A DNA stretch of 64,000 nt from assembly GCA_021818465.1 (NCBI GenBank), contig JAKAEA010000001.1, positions 311,712 through 375,711 on the forward strand, read 5' to 3'. The notes beneath the pieces are model-generated. The model had not been told where the DNA came from and made no database searches. It saw only the letters and a program-made list of their open reading frames with translations. The stretch is from a bacterium (lineage in GTDB: Bacteria > Patescibacteriota > Minisyncoccia > Phycocordibacterales > JAKAEA01). Numbering within the stretch: position 1 is the stretch's first letter; each line of letters begins with the position of its first letter. Positions 49,475 to 60,949 of this stretch are shown piece after piece. Made by a program: the position numbers and the translations under genes.

Positions 49475-49972
49475 TTAACAGTCCAATTTTTCAATATCTT
49501 TCAAAATCTCGGCGGCGTGCGTCGCTGGGTCCACGTCTGGGTACACGGCAATGATTTTTCCAACGTCAGTACCACTCGCGGCAATTAGGTACGACACCCG
49601 GGCTGTCCCGCCGGCAAATGGTCCCGACTCGCGAATGGCCTCGTAGGCGCCAATAGTTTCTTTTCGCTCGTCGGAGAGCAAGGTAAAGGGCAAATGGTAC
49701 TTCTCGGCGAATTTTTTATGACTAGCCACCGAATCCTTAGACACGCCGAAGACCTTGATATCCGCCCGCTGGAAATCCTCATACCGCTCGGCAATCGTAC
49801 ACGCTTCCGTAGTGCACCCCGGCGTGTCATCCTTGGGATAGAAGTAGAGGAGGATAAATCGCGTCGGCGGAGTAGTCTGACTGGCGTTTTTTAAATGGTA
49901 CGCCAGCGTATGTTCCCGTCCATCTTGGTCGGGGAGGGAGAATTCTGGGGCTTGGGTGGTGATGTTGAGCAT
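49475..49972 (-). CDS. bcp: Peroxiredoxin (Bcp/thiol peroxidase, AhpC-TSA family)
   Basis: FYPKDDTPGCTTEA peroxidatic Cys motif; probable start MLNITTQAPEF (ORF 49475..50071). Confidence 0.8.
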   Translation of the reverse strand: MLNITTQAPEFSLPDQDGREHTLAYHLKNASQTTPPTRFILLYFYPKDDTPGCTTEACTIAERYEDFQRADIKVFGVSKDSVASHKKFAEKYHLPFTLLSDERKETIGAYEAIRESGPFAGGTARVSYLIAASGTDVGKIIAVYPDVDPATHAAEILKDIEKLDC

Positions 49973-50046
49973 ATCCTTATTATGACATATATGGAGATAA
50001 AATGTTTCTAAAATTTTTCTAAAGAAAAGTTGAAGAAAAGGTAAAA

Positions 50047-51650
<1,604 letters not shown>

Positions 51651-51654
<4 letters not shown>

Positions 51655-51992
51655 TCATGGCGGATTACTACGACACAATGCAAGTGTGCGTGCGATGGGG
51701 GCACAAGACGACGGAATACTATAACCGAAGCCCGCAGTGGGGTGCCGACTTCTGTCCGCAATGCGGAAGCGCGACTACCATCGTGTGTGGAAAATGTGGG
51801 GCTAACATACGTGGTCACCATCATTTTGATGGTTTTTTCTCTGCCGTAGACACTAAAGTGCCTCTCAACTGCCATGCCTGCGGCGTAGCGTATTCATGGA
51901 AGTTTCGACACGTCGTAAGAAACTTCTTCAAGGCGTTAGTCGCACCCGTGAAGTACCTGATAGACGCCCTGGTGAGCGTTTTCAAGAAATGA
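51651..51992 (+). CDS. Small Cys-rich zinc-ribbon protein embedded between hsdM and hsdS (113 aa)
   Basis: GTG/ATG start overlapping hsdM stop, stop overlapping hsdS ATG (ATGA); three CxxC pairs (CPQCG, CGKCG, CHACG). Confidence 0.55.
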
Positions 51993-53155
51993 GCATGGCA
52001 ACTACCGAATGGAAAGAAACAACACTTGGTGATGTCTGCCTTGTTGAGAGTGGCGGGACTCCTTCGACAGCGAATAATACATACTGGAGTGGCTCGGTCT
52101 CTTGGATAACGCCTCGAGACCTGGCGTCACATGAAGGCCGTTGGATTGAACAAGGCGAAAAGAACATTACGGAAGAAGGGTTGCGAAACTCTTCTGCGCG
52201 CTTGCTGCCGAAAAACACCGTACTTTTTTCTTCGCGTGCTCCCATCGGTTATGTAGCAATCGCTGCACGAGAACTGGCAACGAATCAGGGTTTAAAGAAT
52301 CTTGTATGTGATGAGAAAGAGACGCATTACAAGTTTATCTACTATTGGCTGAAGGCGAACGTGCATGCTATCGAGCGACGGGCGTCTGGCTCTACTTTTG
52401 CTGAAGCGTCCGCGACGGTAATGAAAACACAGGAGGTGTTGCTTCCGCCACTTGACGAGCAGCGCTCCATTGCAACAGTGCTCTCTAGCTTGGACGACAA
52501 AATCGAACTCCTACGACGGCAGAATGAGACACTAGAGCAGATTGCGCAGGCGATTTTCAACGAGTGGTTCGTGAAGCCGACGAGTAAGCGCGTACCGCTT
52601 CGCGAGTTGGTTGAGTTCAACCCAGCCACACCACTCAAAAAAGGAACCGTTGCGGCCTATTTTGACATGGGTGCGCTACCGACCGTGGGCAGTTGGCCCG
52701 AAGAACCCATACAAAGACCCTTCGGCTCGGGGGCGAAGTTCCAAAATGGAGACACTCTGCTTGCACGCATTACTCCTTGTCTCGAAAATGGCAAGACCGC
52801 ATTTGTGCAGCGTCTAAAAAATGGTGAGGTTGCGTGGGGTTCAACTGAATTCATCGTAATCCGCCCAAACTCACCGCTACCGCCTACGTTTGGGTATTTG
52901 CTCGCCAGGAATCCTTCGTTTCGAGATTTTACTATACGCGCAATGACTGGCACGTCTGGTAGGCAGCGCGTACAGGTAGATATGCTGCTCGAATATGAGG
53001 TCTCAATGCCGAGCGACGATGTGATATCGGAGTTCTCTCATGCGGTCGAGGTCATATTCTCAAAAATAAAGAACAATGCCGAGCAAGCCGACACACTGGC
53101 AGCTACGCGCGATGCGCTGTTGCCGCGGCTGATGAGTGGCGAAATACGAGTATAA
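51989..53155 (+). CDS. hsdS: Type I restriction-modification system specificity subunit
   Basis: Two target-recognition domains separated by conserved central repeat (LDEQRSIATVLSSLDDKIELL), C-terminal conserved helix (LPRLMSGEIRV). Confidence 0.85.
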   Translation: MSMATTEWKETTLGDVCLVESGGTPSTANNTYWSGSVSWITPRDLASHEGRWIEQGEKNITEEGLRNSSARLLPKNTVLFSSRAPIGYVAIAARELATNQGLKNLVCDEKETHYKFIYYWLKANVHAIERRASGSTFAEASATVMKTQEVLLPPLDEQRSIATVLSSLDDKIELLRRQNETLEQIAQAIFNEWFVKPTSKRVPLRELVEFNPATPLKKGTVAAYFDMGALPTVGSWPEEPIQRPFGSGAKFQNGDTLLARITPCLENGKTAFVQRLKNGEVAWGSTEFIVIRPNSPLPPTFGYLLARNPSFRDFTIRAMTGTSGRQRVQVDMLLEYEVSMPSDDVISEFSHAVEVIFSKIKNNAEQADTLAATRDALLPRLMSGEIRV

Positions 53156-53157
53156 AT

Positions 53158-53856
53158 ATGAGAATAATCAAACTTTACTTCAGAATATTTTGGATACCCG
53201 TCCTCCTCCTTGTGGCGGCGGTTGGGTGCTGGATTTTTGTTCCCAGTACAATAGATGTTTTTGATGCTGGAGTATTAGGTACAGCATTTGGTGTAGGCAT
53301 ATCAATTTTTGCTGCTGAAGGAATGAAGAAAGTGTCCGAACATAAACGCGTCAAGAGAACATTCGTCTTTTTGAAGCTGATCACTATTCCGTATCTAAAG
53401 AATCAGGCAGAAAATATATCTGCCACATTGAATAAATACCGCGATTTATGCTCCATAGAACAAACGGTAGATTTTCTTACATTGGGTGCACATTTTGATG
53501 CCATTGCGACAAATTTTGACAAAAGTTGGCTCCAGTTGGTGTACTCCCAGGATTTTGTTGATGCTATAGAGTCTGACGACCACTTCAATAAATTGGCGAA
53601 TGCAATTCTTGAGGTGCTTCTATTCATTAAACAGGCGACAGGGCAATCAATTAACGCGAAAACACTTCTTATGATGAACAATATCTCCAACCTCAATGAT
53701 ATTCAGAAACAAGAGATGATGACTCGTGCAAAAAAGATAAGAGACGATCTTTTAGATAATGTTCAAAAGTTGGAAAAATATATAGGTAAACTTGACGAAG
53801 AAATAATCGCATTTTTGATCAAGAATGGAGCTACGTATAGCGAATTTGAAAGATAA
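53158..53856 (+). CDS. Hypothetical 2-TM membrane protein embedded between hsdS and hsdR (AT-rich)
   Basis: Start 2 nt after hsdS stop, stop 1 nt before hsdR ATG; two N-terminal TM helices then helical soluble domain; ~35% GC within ~60% GC operon. Confidence 0.55.
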
Positions 53857-53857
53857 T

Positions 53858-56800
53858 ATGAACCGAATCTACGAAAGCGACATCGAGAAGTGGGCTATCG
53901 AGGCACTGGAACACCAGGGCTACACGTACCTCGCACCCGAGACGCAGGAGGCCGAGCGCGGTGACCTGCACGACGTCGTGCTCGCGGGGCGGTTGCGCGA
54001 GGCCGTGGCACGACTCAACCCTAGAGTGCCCGAAGACGCGCGCGAGGACGCGGTCAAAAAAGTGCTCGCGCTTTCGTCATCGCCGCACTTGATAGAGGCA
54101 AACGAGGAGTTCCAGCGGATGCTCACTGATGGCGTGAGCGTGTCTTCCTACGCTGATGGCGAACAACGTGGCGAGGTCGTCCGCGTCATCGACTTCGCAG
54201 ATCCGCGCAATAACGACCTCGTGGTGGCCAACCAGTTCTCGGTACTCCACGACAACACTAGCAAGCGCCCCGACGTGGTACTCATCGTCAACGGCCTGCC
54301 TCTCGTCGTCATCGAGCTAAAGAACCCGACGGATGAGAACGCGACCGTGCACAAGGCGTACCAGCAGCTCGACAACTACAAGCGAGCCATTCCGCAGCTG
54401 TTCGCCTACAACAGCGTCCTGGTGGCCTCTGACGGCATAGACGCGAAGGCAGGGGCGCTCACGAGCCCGTGGGAGCGCTTCGCTATCTGGCGTGCGCCCG
54501 AGGGTAAGCGCGAGAAGGAAAAGACGACGCCGCAGATGCAGGTGCTCGTCGAGGAGATGCTCCAGCCCGAGGTGCTGCTCGACGTGGTGCGCAGCTTTAC
54601 GGTCTTTGAGAAGACGCGCCGCGAGGATGCGAAAACAGGTCAGACCATCGTGGAAACCATCAAGAAAATCGCGCAGTATCACCAATACTACGTGGTCAAT
54701 AAAGCGGTCGCTTCGACGACTAAGGCCACCGCAGAACATGGCGAGCGCAAAATCGGCGTCGTATGGCATACGCAGGGTTCGGGCAAGTCGCTCTCGATGG
54801 TGTTCTACACGGGCAAGGTCGTGCTCGCGCTCGATAACCCGACGGTGGTGGTGCTCACTGACCGCAACGACCTCGACGACCAGCTCTTCGAGACGTTTGC
54901 TGGTGCTCGCGACCTCTTGCGCCAGGAGCCCGTGCAGGCCGAAAGCCGCGAACACCTGAAGAAGCTTTTGCAGACGGCTGGTGGCGGCATCATCTTCACC
55001 ACCATTCAGAAGTTCTTCCCCGAGGACGGCGGGAGCACGTATGACGAGCTGTCCGACCGCAAGAACATCGTCGTCGTTGCGGACGAGGCGCACCGCAGCC
55101 AGTACGGCTTCGCGGCGCGAACGGTCTTCAAGAACGACGAGGCCATCACGCGCTACGGCAGCGCCAAGTACCTGCGCGACGCACTCCCGAACGCCTCGTT
55201 CATCGGCTTCACGGGTACGCCTATCGAGAAGGAGGACAAGTCCACGCTCGCTGTTTTCGGCGAGTATCTCGACGTGTACGACATCCAGCGTGCGGTCGAA
55301 GACAAAGCAACCGTTCCCATCTACTACGAGAGCCGTTTGGTGAAGGTGCACCTGCCCGACGACAAGAAAGCGGAGATGGACGAAGACGTGGAGGCGGTGG
55401 CCGAGGGCATCGAGTTTTCAGCAAAGGAGAAAGCCAAAGCGAAGTGGGCGCAGCTCGAAGCCATCGTCGGTAATCGCGAGCGAATCAAAGAGGTCGCTCG
55501 CGACCTGGTGGAGCACTTTGAGACGCGGCAAGAGGTCTTCACGGGCAAAGCGATGGTCGTGGCGATGAGCCGTCGTATCGCGGTGGAGCTGTACGAGGAG
55601 ATTGTCGCGCTCCGTCCCGAGTGGCACAGCACCGATTTGGATAAGGGCAAAATCAAGGTGGTGATGTCGGCGAGTTCGAGCGACCCGAAAGAGTTCCAGC
55701 AGCACCACACGAACAAGCCCGACCGCCGCAAGCTCGCGGAGCGTTTCAAAGACCCTACCAACCCGCTCCAGCTCGTCATCGTGCGTGACATGTGGCTCAC
55801 GGGCTTCGACGTGCCGTGCCTGCACACGATGTACGTGGACAAGCTCATGGAGGGCCACAATCTCATGCAAGCCATCGCTCGCGTCAATCGCGTCTATAAA
55901 GACAAGCCAGGCGGTCTCATCGTGGACTACATCGGCTTTGCCTCCGACTTGCAGAAAGCGCTCGCCGTCTACACCGAGAGCGGCGGCAAGGGCGACCCGA
56001 CCATCACGCAGAAGAAAGCCATCGAGGTGATGCAGGAGAAGTACGAGGTGGTGAAGCAGATGTTCCATGGCTTCGACTACCAGCGCTACTTCGCCGCCGA
56101 CACGCACGCGAAGCTCGGCATTATCCTCGAGGCGCAGGAGCACATTCTCGCGCAAGACCAAGACGACGAAGGCGCGTCAGGCAAGGAAAAGAAGAAAACC
56201 AGCGCCAAAGAGCGGTTCGTGCGGGAGGTTATGGCGCTGTCGCAGTCGTTTGCGCTTGCGGTGCCGAGCGAGGCGGCGATGGAGATACGCGACGAGGTTG
56301 CGTTCTTCCAGGCAATCAAGGCACGGCTTGTGAAGTTTGAGCCCGAGGGCGCACCTGGCACCGAGAACATCGGTACCGCTATTCGCCAAATCGTCGATCA
56401 GGCACTCGTGGCCGAGGGTGTCGTGGACATCTTTGCTGCGGCAGGCGTGCAGAAGCCCGACCTCTCCGTTCTCTCGGACGAGTTCCTCGCCGAGGTGCAA
56501 GGCATGAAGCATCGCAACCTGGCGATGGAGTTGCTGCGCAAGATTTTGAACGACGAGATAAAGCTACGCCTGCGCCGCAACGCGCTCCAGGGCAAGAAGC
56601 TCTCGGAGATGCTCGATAAGACCATCAAGAAGTATCAAAACAACCTGCTCACGGCCTCCGAGGTCATCCAAGAGCTCATCGAGCTGGCAAAGCAGATACG
56701 GCAGGAAGACGCCCGCGGCACGCAACTCGGCCTCTCTGACGACGAGGTGGCCTTCTACGATGCGCTGGCCGAAAACGAGAGCGCCCGCGAGGTGCTGGGC

Positions 56801-57064
56801 GATGAACAGCTGCGCGACCTCGCCCGTGTCCTCGTCGACAAGGTGCGCAAGAACACCTCGATTGACTGGACTATCCGTGAGAACGTACAAGCCCGCCTGC
56901 GCGTCTTGGTGAAGCGCACGCTCAACCAGTACGGCTATCCGCCCGATAAGCAGGCCATCGCCACCGAGACCGTGCTGAAGCAGGCTGAACTATTCGCCGA
57001 CGAGTGGGATGATTCTAGTTTGGATACTGTACAAAAAATTACTTCAGAGACTTTAAAGAAATAA
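53858..57064 (+). CDS. hsdR: Type I restriction enzyme R subunit
   Basis: N-terminal nuclease/HsdR_N region, SF2 helicase motifs (GSGKS Walker A, DEAHRSQ), 1068 aa. Confidence 0.9.
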
Positions 57065-57148
57065 AAAACTACTTCCTAAGCCCTATATTTTCTTTAGAAA
57101 ATCTTCATAAAAAGTTTATATTAAATAATTCTTGCACCCAAGATCCTC

Positions 57149-57170
57149 CCATAATCTAATACGATTATGG
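57149..57170. promoter_or_regulatory. Perfect 8-bp inverted repeat CCATAATC-N6-GATTATGG
   Basis: Located ~85 nt after hsdR stop and ~170 nt upstream of next operon; operator- or terminator-like. Confidence 0.3.
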
Positions 57171-57337
57171 CGGTCGAAATCAGTACTCGAATTGCGGTAA
57201 AAAGCTAATGATGTTGCCGTTGAGTTATTCTTTATATGATGTGCAGTGCACGAGTTGTTCTTTCCACGCTCAAATTAAGACAAATTCAAGTTTTTACTTT
57301 GTTAAAAAGATAATCGCGGATTTTGCTATACTACCCC

Positions 57338-57496
57338 CATGGGCTGGTTCATATTCATCGCCTTCATTTGTTTTCTCATTGTGCTGGGAGTGGTGCTGGG
57401 TAAAGACCCTATAAAGTTCACGATTGGGACGCTCGTGGTTCTTATGGCGTTGGCCTTTGTGGTTATAGCGTTTTACGTGCTTAAATCTGTGTTATG
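57338..57496 (+). CDS. Small membrane protein (52 aa, two hydrophobic helices)
   Basis: Not in ORF track (below 60 aa); preceded by extended -10 TGCTATACT; stop overlaps next gene start (ATGA). Confidence 0.45.
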
Positions 57497-58033
57497 ATTA
57501 TAAATATCATGTTCATCTGGATTATTGTCGCAATTTTGCTCTTTGTGCTGGTTGTTGTAATGGCGACCAACGTGGTGGCGGGAGGCCGTAGGCGGAGGGG
57601 TGGCTATACCTACAAAAAAGCTGATTGTGTTATGACGCAATCAGAAAAAATATGTTTTGAAGCGTTACAGAAAGCGGCGGGGAATACGTATTATATTTTC
57701 CCCCAGATGCACTTATCGGCCATTTTAAATCACAAAATCAACAGGCAGAGTTGGTATGGAGCCTTTCGGCATATTAATGGGAAATCGGTTGACTTTGTTT
57801 TGTGCGATAAGGTGATGCTCAAGCCGATGTTAGTTGTTGAACTGGATGACAGAACGCACGAGCGGCGTGATAGGCATATACGAGACAGAGAAGTAGAACG
57901 GATACTTAAAGAGGCTGATGTGCCGCTACTGCGGCTTTCGACCGTGTCGCCGCAAGACCCACTGGCTGTGGCGATTAATGGGGCAATAACGAGAACGTCA
58001 ATTGACCACGTGATGGGTTCTCAGGGGGTTTGA
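57494..58033 (+). CDS. DUF2726 domain protein (restriction-endonuclease-like fold) with N-terminal TM helix
   Basis: EKICFEAL...YIFPQMHLSAIL...GKSVDFVLCDK...PMLVVELDDRTHE matches DUF2726/PD-(D/E)xK-like pattern. Confidence 0.6.
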   Translation: MIINIMFIWIIVAILLFVLVVVMATNVVAGGRRRRGGYTYKKADCVMTQSEKICFEALQKAAGNTYYIFPQMHLSAILNHKINRQSWYGAFRHINGKSVDFVLCDKVMLKPMLVVELDDRTHERRDRHIRDREVERILKEADVPLLRLSTVSPQDPLAVAINGAITRTSIDHVMGSQGV

Positions 58034-58078
58034 AAGAATTTCACAAATACTTTATCTCCGGGTGGTATACTCCGCTCA

Positions 58079-58783
58079 ATGGATGCGGAATCGTTAAAAT
58101 TGGAACAACAGGCATACGATTTTATTGCTCATAGTGGGAGTGAGCTTGTTAAGCGTTTCGCCGACCCAACAATATATAAGCCAGTAGAGCGACCAGTCTC
58201 GCTTTTTATGGCCGGCTCGTCGGGGGCAGGAAAGACGGAAGTCTCTATAGGTTTAGTTAAACGTTTTACCACGAGGCCGATCCGGATTGATGCTGACGAA
58301 ATTCGGCAACTGTGTCCGGGGTATACTGGTGGCAATGCTCATGTATTTCAGAAGGCAGCTACCAAGGGCGTAAACATGCTTTTTGACTATGCACTTCATA
58401 AAAATATCCACGCCATCCTTGACGGCACGTTCGCGTATGCTGACGCGCCAAAGAATATTGAACGTTCATTGAAACATAACAGGATTGTCGAATTGTGGTT
58501 TGTGTATCAAGACCCTTTAGTGGCATGGGAGTTTACCAAAGTAAGAGAAATAAAAGAATGTCGTCATGTAGATAAGGATATCTTCATTAGAGGTTTCTTC
58601 AACGCAAAAGCCAATGCAATAAATGTTAAAACAGCTTTTGGAAGCAACCTTACGCTTAATTTACTCGTAAAGAACATCGACAATACTGACGGTGAGTTGT
58701 TTTTGAACATTCAAGCAAACGACCTTGACCATCGAATTGGGCAGGTATACACTGAGGGTGAATTGCGAGGACTATTACTATGA
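58079..58783 (+). CDS. Zeta-toxin-like P-loop kinase
   Basis: Walker A FMAGSSGAGKT, overall zeta_toxin/AAA_33 pattern, ~234 aa. Confidence 0.6.
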   Translation: MDAESLKLEQQAYDFIAHSGSELVKRFADPTIYKPVERPVSLFMAGSSGAGKTEVSIGLVKRFTTRPIRIDADEIRQLCPGYTGGNAHVFQKAATKGVNMLFDYALHKNIHAILDGTFAYADAPKNIERSLKHNRIVELWFVYQDPLVAWEFTKVREIKECRHVDKDIFIRGFFNAKANAINVKTAFGSNLTLNLLVKNIDNTDGELFLNIQANDLDHRIGQVYTEGELRGLLL

Positions 58784-58977
58784 TGAAATTTTTTAAGAAT
58801 ATAACCGGCAGATTGACCGGAAAAAAAGCTGTCGCGACGGAAAAAGACGACTTTGCCGATTTCTTTTTAAATGCTAAATCGGCGGAAAAAACGAAGATAC
58901 TCCGACAAGTGATGAGGGAAGCAATAGCGGAACAAAAAGCGGTTATGGAAAAATATAATAATAGGGCGAAAGTTTGA
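58780..58977 (+). CDS. Small hypothetical protein coupled to zeta-like kinase (65 aa)
   Basis: ATGA overlap with upstream stop; Lys/Glu-rich helical. Confidence 0.4.
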   Translation: MMKFFKNITGRLTGKKAVATEKDDFADFFLNAKSAEKTKILRQVMREAIAEQKAVMEKYNNRAKV

Positions 58978-59046
58978 TATTATTGAATTCCGTAACATTT
59001 TAAATTAGTAGTTGTTATTCTAGGTTGTTAGTACATATATACCCCC

Positions 59047-59253
59047 ATGCAAAACGAATATGATGCGGACGAGCTGCGCGACATCGCCGACATTATGGAT
59101 GAGGTGGGGGTGGACGCGGATCGGGCGGAGGAAATCAAGGAATTGAAGGAGAGTCACAATCTCGATACCGAGCAGGCGGCCCGGGCTAAGGAGCTCATGG
59201 ACGATGATGGATTAGACGAGGACACGGCGGCGGCGCTTTGTGATTTTCTATAA
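59047..59253 (+). CDS. Small acidic protein, family member 1 (68 aa)
   Basis: Shares C-terminal motif EL.ES..L..E.A.R.K.L.D.DGLDE..A with 60282..60632 and 60677..60949. Confidence 0.5.
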   Translation: MQNEYDADELRDIADIMDEVGVDADRAEEIKELKESHNLDTEQAARAKELMDDDGLDEDTAAALCDFL

Positions 59254-59298
59254 CCTGCGATCGCTTCGGTAGGAGAGTGATATACTAAATACTTTAAA

Positions 59299-59781
59299 AT
59301 GAATAAACGATCTCTTTTTGCTCTCGTTATTTTTATTCTTAGCACCGAGGCGGTGGGGATGCTGGGTGCCTTGGCGACGACGCCGAATATTGCCACTTGG
59401 TATGCGGGATTGGTAAAGCCGATGTTGACGCCTCCAGGCTGGGTTTTCGGGCCGGTGTGGGTGACGCTCTATCTGCTCATGGGCATTGCGATGTTTTTGG
59501 TGTGGCGAAGGAGGGGTATTGGTTCTCGGCGCGATTGGTGGTTGGCACGGATTTTTTATTCGGTTCAGCTAATGCTCAATTTGCTGTGGTCCATTGTCTT
59601 TTTTGGTTTGCACAATAGTAGCGGAGGCTTGGGGGTGATTGCGACGCTGTGGATGCTGATTCTTTTGACGATCATCTTTTTCGGGCGAGTTTCCAGGGCA
59701 GCGGCTTGGCTTTTGGTGCCATATATTGTTTGGGTGAGTTTCGCAATGTATTTGAATCTGGGAATTTGGTTATGTAATTAA
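59299..59781 (+). CDS. tspO: TspO/MBR family tryptophan-rich sensory protein
   Basis: Five TM helices, Trp-rich, WYAGLVKP..PPGWVFGPVW and LNLLWS motifs. Confidence 0.8.
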   Translation: MNKRSLFALVIFILSTEAVGMLGALATTPNIATWYAGLVKPMLTPPGWVFGPVWVTLYLLMGIAMFLVWRRRGIGSRRDWWLARIFYSVQLMLNLLWSIVFFGLHNSSGGLGVIATLWMLILLTIIFFGRVSRAAAWLLVPYIVWVSFAMYLNLGIWLCN

Positions 59782-59786
59782 GGCCG

Positions 59787-60194
59787 GTGTTTATTTTTCA
59801 TCATCTTCGTTTGAGGCTTCGACGGCGCGCGATACGGCGGCCGAATGCTCGCGCTCGGGCTCATTTCTTGGCGCATAAGGAGCGGGCGCGGGAATTAGTA
59901 GCTCGGAAGATCCCCGAGCTTAATGCGCTGCCGGGCTATGGCTTTGCGGTCGGCCGCGTAGCGATACGAAATCAAAAAAGTCGCTGGGGAAGTTGCTCGG
60001 CCAGGGGGAATTTAAATTTTAATTATCGGGTGGCTTTCTTGCCGGAGCGGCTGGTGGATTACGTGGTGGTGCACGAGCTGTGCCATTTGCGGGAGCTTAA
60101 CCATTCAGCGGCGTTTTGGGCGCTGGTGGCGCAGGCGGTGCCGGATTGGCGGGTGAAGCGGCGGGAGTTGCGGATGATTGAGCGCTCTTTTTAG
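59787..60194 (+). CDS. YgjP-like (DUF45/WLM) metal-dependent hydrolase, short form
   Basis: HELCHLRELNHSAAFWALV (HExxH...NHS) C-terminal signature. Confidence 0.6.
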   Translation: MFIFHHLRLRLRRRAIRRPNARARAHFLAHKERARELVARKIPELNALPGYGFAVGRVAIRNQKSRWGSCSARGNLNFNYRVAFLPERLVDYVVVHELCHLRELNHSAAFWALVAQAVPDWRVKRRELRMIERSF

Positions 60195-60281
60195 TGCTTT
60201 TTGTTGTGTAGTAAAATCTTTTTCAAGAGTAATCCACAGCAACTCTGGCACGGCGATATATATTTGTTAGACTAGCGGCAT

Positions 60282-60632
60282 ATGAAAAATAATTTTAGAC
60301 AAAATAACGACGAGGAGTTTGCAGATGAAGAAGAAAACGAAAAGATCGGCACCGATGCTTCCGATGAGGCTGACGCGGACGATGCGGATGACGATGCGGA
60401 TGATGAAACTGATGCAGATGACGAGGATGGTGCAGATGACGAAGATTCCGCTGAAGATGATATGAGTGACGACGCTGCGGATGATGCTGAAGAAACCGAT
60501 GAAGAACTGGCCGAGCTCATGGAATCCTATGACTTGAGCGAAGAGGATGCCCAACGGGTAAAAAAACTGATTGATGAAGATGGTCTTGATGAGCGCGACG
60601 CGGTTGACATGATCGAAGAAAACTTGGATTAA
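60282..60632 (+). CDS. Highly acidic Asp/Glu-rich protein, family member 2 (116 aa)
   Basis: ~45% D/E with (DADD)n tract; C-terminal conserved helical motif shared with 59047 and 60677 genes. Confidence 0.5.
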   Translation: MKNNFRQNNDEEFADEEENEKIGTDASDEADADDADDDADDETDADDEDGADDEDSAEDDMSDDAADDAEETDEELAELMESYDLSEEDAQRVKKLIDEDGLDERDAVDMIEENLD

Positions 60633-60676
60633 AATTTTTCCTGTAAGTATTTGCACAGCGCGCCGTCATTGCCGCG

Positions 60677-60949
60677 GTGATAACCCATGATTTTAAAAAA
60701 GAAGATGCGCCGGTGTTGGCGGAACATATTCCTGATTACGACATTGATGCAGATGATGAAAGCCAGCAGCCCGCCGTGCGCGTAGAAGAAGATTTAAGCG
60801 CGGGTATTAGTGATCCCATTATTTTTGAACTGATGGATGCCTACGGCTTAGATGACGAGCAGGCCTTTGATGTGCGGACGATGATTGTCCGTTGGGGAAT
60901 TGATGAAGAAGAGGCGGTGGAACGGGTGCGCAACGCTTCACGTTTGTAA
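60677..60949 (+). CDS. Acidic protein, family member 3 (90 aa)
   Basis: ELMDAYGLDDEQAFDVRTMIVRWGIDEEEAVE motif homologous to other two. Confidence 0.45.
   Translation: MITHDFKKEDAPVLAEHIPDYDIDADDESQQPAVRVEEDLSAGISDPIIFELMDAYGLDDEQAFDVRTMIVRWGIDEEEAVERVRNASRL

Follow-up and report, generated by a model that had tools for sequence, protein, structure and literature searches.

Several small, acidic and helical proteins, among them the colicin immunity proteins, T7 gp5.9, Ocr and ArdA, are established inhibitors of nucleases or mimics of DNA. Ocr (T7 gp0.3) and ArdA are electrostatic DNA mimics that are functionally tied to type I restriction-modification (RM) enzymes, and anti-restriction genes usually reside in phages and plasmids. 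T7 gp5.9 (about 52 aa, highly acidic) and lambda Gam are small acidic DNA-mimic inhibitors of RecBCD, and lambda Ral and Rac Lar are small restriction-alleviation proteins; all four are tiny mobile-element proteins that blunt host DNA-degrading or restriction enzymes, and we know of none that serves as the terminal gene of a defence cargo. The colicin immunity proteins Im7 and Im9, which are small, acidic and helical, are encoded right after the nuclease gene, within one operon, and neutralise its product by binding.

The window considered here, a 64,000-nucleotide stretch of patescibacterial DNA, bears three chromosomal genes for highly acidic proteins, which we call A, B and C. Judged by sequence comparison, they are members of an undescribed, Patescibacteria-centred family of hyper-acidic mini-proteins. 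Like Ocr and ArdA, these proteins are very acidic, small and, by prediction, helical, and A, B and C all carry a strong net negative charge. Ocr and ArdA are rigid dimers of 116-170 aa with phosphate-spaced carboxylates, whereas the family domain has only about 44 residues; they are found on phages, plasmids and ICEs and are expressed on entry, whereas the family gene for the most part stands at the 3' end of defence operons. The gene order and tight coupling of Im7/Im9 recur in the acidic family, but Im7 and Im9 are specific to, and co-vary with, one cognate nuclease, while the family domain follows many unrelated enzymes. A parallel to gp5.9 and Gam is provided by six loci, in which a family member comes directly after a Cas4/RecB-like PD-(D/E)XK nuclease on an integrative element. 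Finally, the 67-residue Asp/Glu tract of B, which is predicted to be disordered, resembles the disordered acidic tails that compete with DNA, namely the HMGB1 tail, the C-termini of T7 gp2.5 and SSB, and prothymosin-alpha. The proteins that bear those tails bind DNA or act as chromatin chaperones, whereas B is without a DNA-binding domain and has only an acidic mini-bundle.

Three acidic proteins in the window

The three proteins and their parts are as follows.

59047-59253, + strand: protein A, 68 aa, ATG start, 35% D+E, net charge -18
59125-59244, + strand: family domain of A, residues ~27-66 (hmmsearch domain coordinates)
60282-60632, + strand: protein B, 116 aa, ATG start, 57/116 = 49% D+E, net charge -50
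60282-60482, + strand: B residues 1-67, poly-acidic tract, predicted disordered
60483-60629, + strand: B residues 68-116, the family domain, predicted three-helix mini-bundle (H68-83, H87-100, H104-114)
60677-60949, + strand: protein C, 90 aa, GTG start, 28% D+E, net charge -17
60809-60934, + strand: family domain of C (hmmsearch domain coordinates)

The initial annotation had described three acidic paralogs with a common C-terminal motif, and alignment, BLASTP and the family HMM bear this out. The alignment shows a common C-terminal block of about 40-45 aa (a domain of about 44 residues), whose most divergent motif is that of C (VRWGIDEEEA). BLASTP with compositional adjustment returned E-values of 8e-8 for A-B, 4e-6 for B-C and 2e-4 for A-C. 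Searched against the six-frame translation of the window, the family HMM matched A, B and C (E 1e-16 to 1e-17) and no other ORF; its seed included these three proteins, and the family itself was recovered independently by a separate profile search. Protein A contains one additional helix-turn unit of about 19 aa beyond the family domain.

Protein B had been put at about 45% Asp/Glu with a DADDADDDADDETDADDEDGADDED tract; the tract is present and the protein is very acidic, although its true content is slightly higher, at 49%. A degenerate 9/12-nt tandem array at 60363-60446 codes for the acidic tract, whose composition is kept in orthologues while its length and sequence vary. The paralogs had also been called dispersed, but B and C form a tandem with 44 nt between them, an arrangement also kept in the related loci L003 and L033. 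Promoter consensus scans around the acidic genes gave nothing above shuffle expectation. Long Ser-rich ORFs run along the strand opposite these genes.

Compared with the orthologues in MAG GCA_027328845.1, differences at codon positions 1/2/3 number 21/15/56 for B and 12/7/35 for C, with pN/pS of ~0.48 and ~0.26, respectively. Because third-codon-position changes dominate, B and C are real genes under purifying selection. A reading of the three as GA-rich, low-complexity chance ORFs, suggested by their very short length, extreme composition, the codon-repeat array in B and the Ser-rich ORFs opposite, is effectively refuted by these codon positions, by the hydrophobic pattern conserved across 173 diverged clusters of homologues and by the high AlphaFold confidence for the domain.

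The family and its predicted structure

A word-indexed homologue search gave orthologues of C only; the family was uncovered by an exhaustive HMMER search (E<=1e-3), which yielded 173 representative clusters, mostly stand-alone proteins of 43-70 aa. The consensus reads PDEEIKELMExYDLDEDEAERVKEIMDEyGLDEDDAVEL, and the 120 short members counted contain 40% D+E. Where a source is labelled, it is nearly always a member of the Patescibacteria (CPR). Some variants have an N-terminal membrane anchor, and the domain also occurs as the cytoplasmic C-terminal tail of multi-pass membrane proteins. Several relatives are carried by integrative elements whose other genes encode a serine recombinase, a CI-like repressor, Prim-Pol and ParB-MTase, while IMG/VR, INPHARED and PLSDB, collections in which CPR mobile elements are poorly sampled, returned no relatives.

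The family had not been recognised in the initial annotation, and library searches agree. When A, B, C and ten family members were scanned against Pfam, NCBIfam, PHROGs and PADLOC, nothing rose above sub-threshold noise (ANTAR, DUF4202, VIT1, RFC1, nusA_Cterm), which included nusA_Cterm_rpt at E=0.097 and ANTAR at E 4e-4 to 0.07, under the gathering score. PDB sequence-profile searches with a 3-sequence and a 126-sequence profile returned nothing significant. A SiaC match (E=0.005) came from the small, biased 3-sequence profile and was lost with the family profile, for which calmodulin was the best PDB sequence match (E=0.11, not significant). A literature search turned up nothing about the family. 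Membership in a housekeeping family had been named as the finding that would speak against an anti-restriction role, and the family corresponds to no known housekeeping family.

AlphaFold predicts the B domain (residues 68-116) as a three-helix mini-bundle with pLDDT >90 and residues 1-67 as disordered (pLDDT about 50-58). The A model has four helices, namely the family domain plus the extra helix-turn unit, with a mean pLDDT of 84. Conserved family positions are hydrophobic-core or helix-capping residues, and the domain surface would be almost entirely carboxylate.

The structural likeness to Ocr and ArdA that had been raised, as a mimic of B-DNA, finds no support. Neither the Ocr nor the ArdA Pfam model matched A, B, C or family members at E<=1, and the family-profile search at E<=10 did not return Ocr in the PDB. 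Foldseek against the PDB gave best E-values of 2.3 (B model) and 0.41 (A model), with no Ocr, ArdA or other mimic listed. There is thus no likeness in sequence or fold to Ocr, ArdA or any other solved DNA mimic, and the conserved part is only a bundle of about 44 aa. Because its poly-acidic tract is predicted to be disordered, and is not a phosphate-spaced array, B would not be a rigid B-DNA mimic of the Ocr/ArdA type. No homology was detected to Im7/Im9 and similar nuclease-immunity pairs (Pfam, PDB profile), nor to gp5.9, Gam, Ral or Lar (PDB sequence-profile search, Foldseek).

Genomic context

The initial annotation placed the acidic genes next to an RM system, and a complete type I RM system indeed lies just upstream. 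Its genes and those that follow are listed below.

50047-57064, + strand: type I RM cargo, GC 0.57-0.60 vs ~0.45 in the flanks
50047-51654, + strand: hsdM, part of the cargo
51896-53155, + strand: hsdS, part of the cargo
53158-53856, + strand: 232-aa gene with no assigned family, between hsdS and hsdR
53825-57064, + strand: hsdR, part of the cargo
57494-58033, + strand: DUF2726 protein, in the co-directional block directly before A
58079-58783, + strand: zeta-toxin-family kinase, in the same block
58780-58977, + strand: 65-aa ORF overlapping the zeta-toxin stop codon (ATGA); A starts 69 nt beyond
59299-59781, + strand: TspO/MBR membrane protein, between A and B
59787-60194, + strand: YgjP-like metallopeptidase, C-terminal half only (profile positions 96-205 of 207), directly before B

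Protein A closes the type I RM / DUF2726 / zeta-toxin block, and the tspO and ygjP-like genes, correctly noted before as interleaved, both lie between A and B. L003 and also L020, an unrelated Paceibacterota MAG, likewise have TspO right before a family member. The order YgjP, B, C recurs in L033, and full-length YgjP adjoins hsdR in L016 and L027. The window and L003 have a common frame, TopA...AhpC, variable cargo and TspO-B-C-SDR-DprA-SerRS, in which the cargo is wholly different.

A trimmed 6-sequence alignment served to locate related loci. Of the 26 non-redundant loci from other genomes, at least 19 carry RM, nuclease or defence genes within 6 kb upstream, with the acidic gene as the last gene, co-directional and tightly coupled; the loci are partly dependent, as L010-13 and L015 are one element and L016, L017 and L020 one module. 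The tie to restriction systems that had been drawn from this one neighbourhood is therefore more than a coincidence of the window. HsdR-like genes, present in 10 loci, are always upstream and on the same strand as the acidic gene. Besides the PD-(D/E)XK nucleases mentioned above, upstream genes include Dcm+HATPase_c_3, T5orf172, Mrr-like, GmrSD, DUF2779, DUF3800, NACHT, SIR2-HerA and type III Res/Mod. Membrane-anchored variants have a like context, being found after HsdR+Mrr-like, after Res+Mod and after RmuC.

The association is polar. Among 28 cases, 25 have a co-directional gene as their nearest upstream neighbour but only 15 have one downstream, and the spacing from the upstream stop codon to the start of the conserved domain is usually 7-62 nt. 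Downstream families with at least two members comprise T4SS pilin, XRE/CI-like repressors, serine recombinase and housekeeping genes, and none of them has an RM or defence domain.

Proposed function and alternative explanations

Because the gene is mostly the last one behind restriction enzymes and anti-phage nucleases, we infer that the mini-proteins probably modulate these upstream enzymes, and they may do so by binding and inhibiting the nucleases. The best reading, which we hold tentatively, is that they act as polyanionic nucleic-acid competitors restraining or evading the co-encoded nucleases. The acidic protein would occupy basic DNA-binding surfaces of co-encoded nucleases or RM complexes or, alternatively, of the restriction enzymes of a new host. 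Its role could then be that of a built-in brake or establishment factor, allowing a defence cassette to be carried and exchanged without self-damage. Within the window, the type I RM / DUF2726 / zeta block would be the one that A serves, with the conserved B-C pair placed at the fixed edge of the variable defence slot. A looser electrostatic mimicry or competition is a plausible candidate mechanism, and such diverse upstream partners are easier to reconcile with a generic electrostatic mechanism than with an immunity protein of narrow specificity. On the other hand, the acidic motif may be purely structural, because the conserved acidic residues lie at helix N-caps and the domain is very small.

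The strongest competing explanation concerns the position of the gene itself. Both in the L010-L015 element family and in the pair formed by the window and L003, the acidic gene is part of a conserved flank that meets the cargo precisely at the 5' end of this gene, so the association could be a matter of hotspot architecture. The protein would then be encoded by a hotspot-flank or cassette-boundary gene with a function unrelated to restriction, for instance in element maintenance, as a small regulator, or as a homologous-recombination anchor for cargo swapping. Homology of L013 to L010-12 and L015 starts exactly at the acidic-gene ATG, the cargo upstream differs, and a conserved terminator-like hairpin follows the stop codon. 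The L010-15 backbone, with its serine recombinase, CI-like repressor, XRE and HTH_36 genes, and the shared frame around TspO-B-C in the window and L003 point in the same direction. Yet one tiny family occurs in many unrelated backbones and CPR classes, unlike ordinary hotspot flanks, and the genes downstream differ among those backbones. The operonic coupling to the cargo also argues against a mere flank gene, as does protein A, which is missing from L003 and travels with the cargo, outside the conserved frame. We therefore regard this explanation as possible but rather doubtful.

It is unlikely that the domain is a generic acidic adaptor, chaperone or cation-binding mini-domain with no specific tie to DNA-targeting enzymes. 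Conceptually, such a module for protein-protein contacts or counter-ions would be akin to UBA/HhH-like three-helix domains, SHOCT-like C-terminal tails or acidic chaperones of basic proteins. Such a role would suit a generic three-helix or helical-hairpin repeat fold, whose nearest structural neighbours, all non-significant, are UBA, the protein-A Z-domain, RuvA domain III and designed alpha/alpha repeats. It would also suit the use of the domain as a cytoplasmic tail on multi-pass membrane proteins, and the weak, sub-threshold likeness to calmodulin, NusA acidic repeats and ANTAR. It would not explain why the family is so strongly, and with such polarity, linked to RM and nuclease genes, and the segments are predicted to be helical, without the residues of the canonical 12-residue EF-hand loop (D-x-D/N-x-D/N-G-x-I-x-x-x-E); in the calmodulin alignment the first loop ligand falls on a conserved Gly. 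There is no UBA Pfam match, and the SHOCT Pfam model matched neither the membrane-anchored P0034 and P0045 nor the stand-alone members, so that only the architecture (an N-terminal TM region plus a short C-terminal domain) is similar to SHOCT.

Other identities were considered and set aside. An EF-hand or dockerin-like Ca2+ loop was rejected, the turns being 3-residue helix caps in the AlphaFold models. HhH, NusA acidic repeat or UBA-like identity had only sub-threshold profile and fold scores (Foldseek E>2 for UBA, RuvA domain III and the Topo V HhH), and a RiPP precursor was rejected for want of a Cys/Ser/Thr-rich core.

Very improbable is an epsilon-like antitoxin function, in which A, or the 65-aa ORF before it, would neutralise the zeta-family toxin at 58079-58783. 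Epsilon antitoxin is a small three-helix bundle; the toxin is without an upstream epsilon/PezA gene and is followed on the same strand by two small helical ORFs, the first overlapping its stop codon. The Epsilon_antitox and PezA models (Pfam, NCBIfam) fit neither of the two ORFs, A is separated by 69 nt from the 65-aa ORF, and family members elsewhere are not beside zeta toxins. A as epsilon antitoxin is rejected, having no model match and the wrong gene order, downstream of the toxin; the 65-aa ORF is the better candidate.

To return to the polyanionic competitor, a bolder form of it would make the family a CPR-wide end-module, that is, a universal, partner-independent polyanionic brake or hand-over factor with which defence cassettes could be swapped without autoimmunity. 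We consider this improbable in so general a form. Such a module would possibly also mark the insertion junction at its own start codon, and restriction enzymes, SIR2-HerA, PD-(D/E)XK nucleases and the like could move back and forth between integrative elements and slots in the chromosome throughout the Patescibacteria. If true, hosts or elements would encode a broad-spectrum nuclease modulator of a new class, distinct from phage anti-restriction proteins.

Implications

Should the mini-proteins restrain or evade nucleases, they would offer a broad-spectrum inhibitor scaffold that is new and, at ~5 kDa, very compact, and would help to explain how small, recombination-dependent CPR genomes tolerate and shuffle many nuclease defences. 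Defence systems and mobile elements of Patescibacteria are poorly catalogued. Whatever its function, the family is a practical genomic marker whose 5' side flags variable defence cargo in this group, and unannotated genes directly upstream are therefore candidate new defence genes. Such candidates encode proteins of 170 aa (L019), 486 aa (L025), 553 aa (L023) and 112 aa (L005), and within the window the 232-aa gene between hsdS and hsdR is a further one.

The acidic proteins and their family

The three acidic open reading frames proposed in the initial annotation were all found, and the block of about 40–45 residues that aligns among them is C-terminal:

59047–59253, forward strand: A, 68 aa
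60282–60632, forward strand: B, 116 aa
60677–60949, forward strand: C, 90 aa, GTG start

Pairwise BLASTP with compositional adjustment gave E = 8e-8 for A–B, 4e-6 for B–C and 2e-4 for A–C. Asp and Glu make up 49% of B, 35% of A and 28% of C. B, with a net charge of −50, carries the DADDADDDADDETDADDEDGADDED tract quoted earlier, encoded by a degenerate 9/12-nt codon-repeat array, and A has one extra copy of a ~19-aa helix-turn unit. When the family HMM was run against the six-frame translation of the window, only A, B and C matched.

A, B and C are real genes, and spurious ORFs are effectively excluded. The window sequence belongs to MAG GCA_027341405.1 (contig DAIEME010000001.1). Orthologues of B and C are encoded in a related MAG, GCA_027328845.1 (locus L003), with differences dominated by the third codon position (positions 1/2/3: 21/15/56 for B, 12/7/35 for C) and pN/pS of ~0.48 (B) and ~0.26 (C). 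The C-terminal domain of B is conserved between the two genomes, unlike its acidic tract, which differs in length and sequence while keeping its composition.

The initial annotation did not recognise this family, and rightly so: no model in Pfam, NCBIfam, PHROGs or PADLOC matched A, B, C or ten further members, and PDB sequence-profile searches found nothing. Searched exhaustively with an HMMER profile, 1.84 billion representatives yielded 173 family clusters (E ≤ 1e-3), the majority being stand-alone proteins of 43–70 aa. The consensus is (E)PDEE[IV]KELME[NDS][YH]DLDxD[ET]AE[RK]V[KQ]E[IL]MDExG[LV]DEDDAVEL, and Asp plus Glu reach 40% in short members (n = 120 counted). Near-invariant positions comprise a hydrophobic core (L, M, L, A, V, I/L, M, L/V, A, V, L), one Gly, and Asp/Ser at helix starts. 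In some members the domain forms the cytoplasmic C-terminal tail of a small multi-pass membrane protein, another (P0077) has a possible C-terminal HTH (weak match), and a poly-acidic N-terminal tract as in B occurs in a few (P0135 and the L003 orthologue). All but three source labels are Patescibacteria/CPR (Saccharibacteria, Parcubacteria, Paceibacterota, Magasanik-, Doudna-, Taylor-, Komeili- and Nomurabacteria), the others being one Pacearchaeota MAG and two Gammaproteobacteria; searches of IMG/VR, INPHARED and PLSDB found no relatives. We regard as established that this is an undescribed Patescibacteria mini-protein family, and likewise its predicted three-helix fold and the predicted disorder of the B tract. 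A real and previously undescribed family of this kind is a good experimental lead.

Just 5′ of both A (59023–59041) and B (60256–60276), TTGTTAG stands beside an ATATATA run, which may represent a promoter or operator element common to the two; a promoter scan around the genes did not exceed the shuffle expectation.

Genomic neighbourhood and proposed role

Neighbourhoods were compared in 26 non-redundant loci, using ORFs that we called ourselves, clustered by BLAST and scanned against Pfam, with an upstream range of 6 kb. RM, nuclease or defence genes lie upstream in at least 19 of the 26, and the loci without them are mostly contig ends or have unannotated genes. ResIII was present in 14 of 99 upstream ORFs; 10 loci have HsdR-type genes, every time upstream and on the same strand, and a Cas4/RecB-like PD-(D/E)XK nuclease is directly upstream in six. 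Further upstream genes encode Dcm with HATPase_c_3, N6/N4 and D12 methylases, YgjP, GmrSD, DUF2779, DUF3800, T5orf172, Mrr-like and AAA_21/OLD-like proteins, a NACHT STAND NTPase, SIR2-HerA, and type III Res with an endonuclease domain. Downstream gene families with at least two members lack RM or defence domains and comprise T4SS pilins, XRE/HTH_36 regulators, a CI-like HTH+S24 repressor, large serine recombinases and housekeeping genes. Of 28 cases, 25 have a nearest upstream gene that is co-directional, and typically only 7–62 nt separate its stop codon from the first conserved domain residue; the downstream gene shares the direction in only 15 of the 28. Membrane-anchored variants have matching context, following HsdR and Mrr-like genes (L009), Res and Mod (L030) or RmuC (P0027), and one (L031) is followed by mobile-element Prim-Pol and ParB-methylase genes. 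The strong, polar association of the family with DNA-targeting defence genes is thus established.

Our preferred reading, held tentatively, is that the hyper-acidic bundle, alone or together with a disordered poly-acidic tail, is a generic nucleic-acid competitor. It would compete with nucleic acid for the basic surfaces through which nucleases and RM enzymes bind DNA, and could act as a built-in brake for the cassette that the acidic gene terminates, as a factor for establishment or anti-restriction during cassette transfer, or as both. The diversity of upstream partners points to an electrostatic, partner-independent mode and makes a cognate immunity protein less likely. In their order the genes are like nuclease–immunity pairs. 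The nearest systems in concept are Ocr/ArdA, T7 gp5.9, lambda Gam, Ral/Lar, colicin Im proteins and DNA-competing acidic tails. On this reading the proteins would belong with acidic modulators of DNA enzymes. The restriction-related role first suggested is thus favoured by comparative genomics, whereas Ocr/ArdA-like structural mimicry is not: tests for membership in the Ocr, ArdA, epsilon antitoxin, SHOCT, EF-hand and HhH/UBA families were negative, and high negative charge is the only common feature. It is unlikely that the proteins serve instead as a general acidic adaptor or chaperone, or as a domain that binds cations.

The variable defence slot and the cargo junction

The window locus has the following gene order (minus-strand genes marked −):

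Left: TopA (−), DUF5667 (−), sigma70 (−), PKD, DUF3800, AhpC (−)
Middle: hsdM, hsdS, 232-aa gene, hsdR, DUF2726, zeta-toxin kinase, 65-aa ORF, A
Right: TspO, YgjP-like (C-terminal half only), B, C, SDR (−), DprA (−), SerRS

In L003 the frame on both sides of the AhpC–TspO interval is the same, and the cargo differs: Fic/RhuM, an EcoRI-type methylase, HEPN and GmrSD-HNH, as against type I RM, DUF2726, zeta and A in the window (49475–59299 versus L003 4277–8921, two related MAGs). The interval is therefore a variable defence slot. L003 lacks A and YgjP; A is part of the cargo, and B–C are part of the fixed right-hand edge. A third relative (L033) has the order YgjP-like, B-type, C-type. GC is 0.57–0.60 over the type I RM genes (~50000–57000) against about 0.45 in their surroundings and about 0.43–0.48 in most of the window, and HsdR falls in one 90%-identity cluster with a protein of 'Parcubacteria group bacterium 21-54-25', which suggests that the block was gained recently by horizontal transfer. 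From this HsdR cluster, a member of the Parcubacteria group is the most likely host.

L010–L013 and L015 contain almost the same small integrative element (about 7900–12500 in L010), in MAGs with Saccharibacteria, Parcubacteria, Paceibacterota and Gammaproteobacteria labels, which indicates horizontal spread, mis-binning or mislabelling. It encodes the acidic gene, a 96-aa Zn-ribbon/TM protein, HTH_36, a 92-aa protein, XRE, a CI-like HTH+S24 repressor and a large serine recombinase. In the L010–L015 elements a conserved hairpin lies 3′ of the acidic gene's stop codon, and between L013, with its different cargo, and the others, DNA homology begins exactly at the acidic gene's ATG. This junction and the window/L003 synteny fit the main rival to the competitor reading, namely that the family is no more than a conserved flank bordering hotspots of cargo insertion; we think this possible but rather doubtful, as it leaves unexplained the same tiny family in many unrelated backbones and the operonic fusion of the acidic gene to cargo. 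That the family is a CPR-wide cassette end-module enabling exchange of nuclease defence systems seems to us improbable.

Other genes at the loci

53158–53856, forward strand: 232-aa ORF between hsdS and hsdR, overlapping the hsdR start by 32 nt
57494–58977, forward strand: DUF2726 protein (N-terminal TM segment), zeta-toxin-family kinase and basic 65-aa ORF, in that order
59787–60194, forward strand: YgjP-like gene, GTG start, profile positions 96–205 of 207 only

The 232-aa ORF has no match in Pfam or PADLOC; it may belong to the type I RM system as an uncharacterised accessory gene. No epsilon/PezA gene lies upstream of the zeta toxin, so the kinase and the 65-aa ORF, which overlaps its stop codon (ATGA), may form a toxin-first TA arrangement; this ORF is a better antitoxin candidate than A, for which that role is very improbable. 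Full-length YgjP (243–248 aa) adjoins hsdR in L016 and L027, and since the order short YgjP, B, C is repeated in L033, the short form may be a working gene rather than a remnant.

SIR2-like and HerA genes (L013 3156–5820) and an unknown 382-aa gene with HerA (L010 4399–7195) lie upstream of the acidic gene and resemble defence systems of the SIR2-HerA type carried by CPR elements. Two small families without Pfam matches also recur, each in four loci:

L014 343–660, L017 8127–8447, L019 8124–8447, L021 1410–1730, minus strand: conserved 105–107-aa gene converging on the acidic gene and overlapping its stop by 4–9 nt
L021 929–1234, L028 1523–1828 (upstream); L030 7468–7773, L031 2469–2774 (downstream): 101-aa family adjoining family members, 73% identity between L021 and L030, motif WNYFPHKxLGGxSPAE

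TspO, a tetrapyrrole-binding membrane protein, immediately precedes a family member in the window (59299–59781), L003 (8921–9460) and L020 (7463–7939), with 55% protein identity between these loci; in L020, an unrelated Paceibacterota MAG, it comes after HsdR, Dcm and HATPase_c_3.
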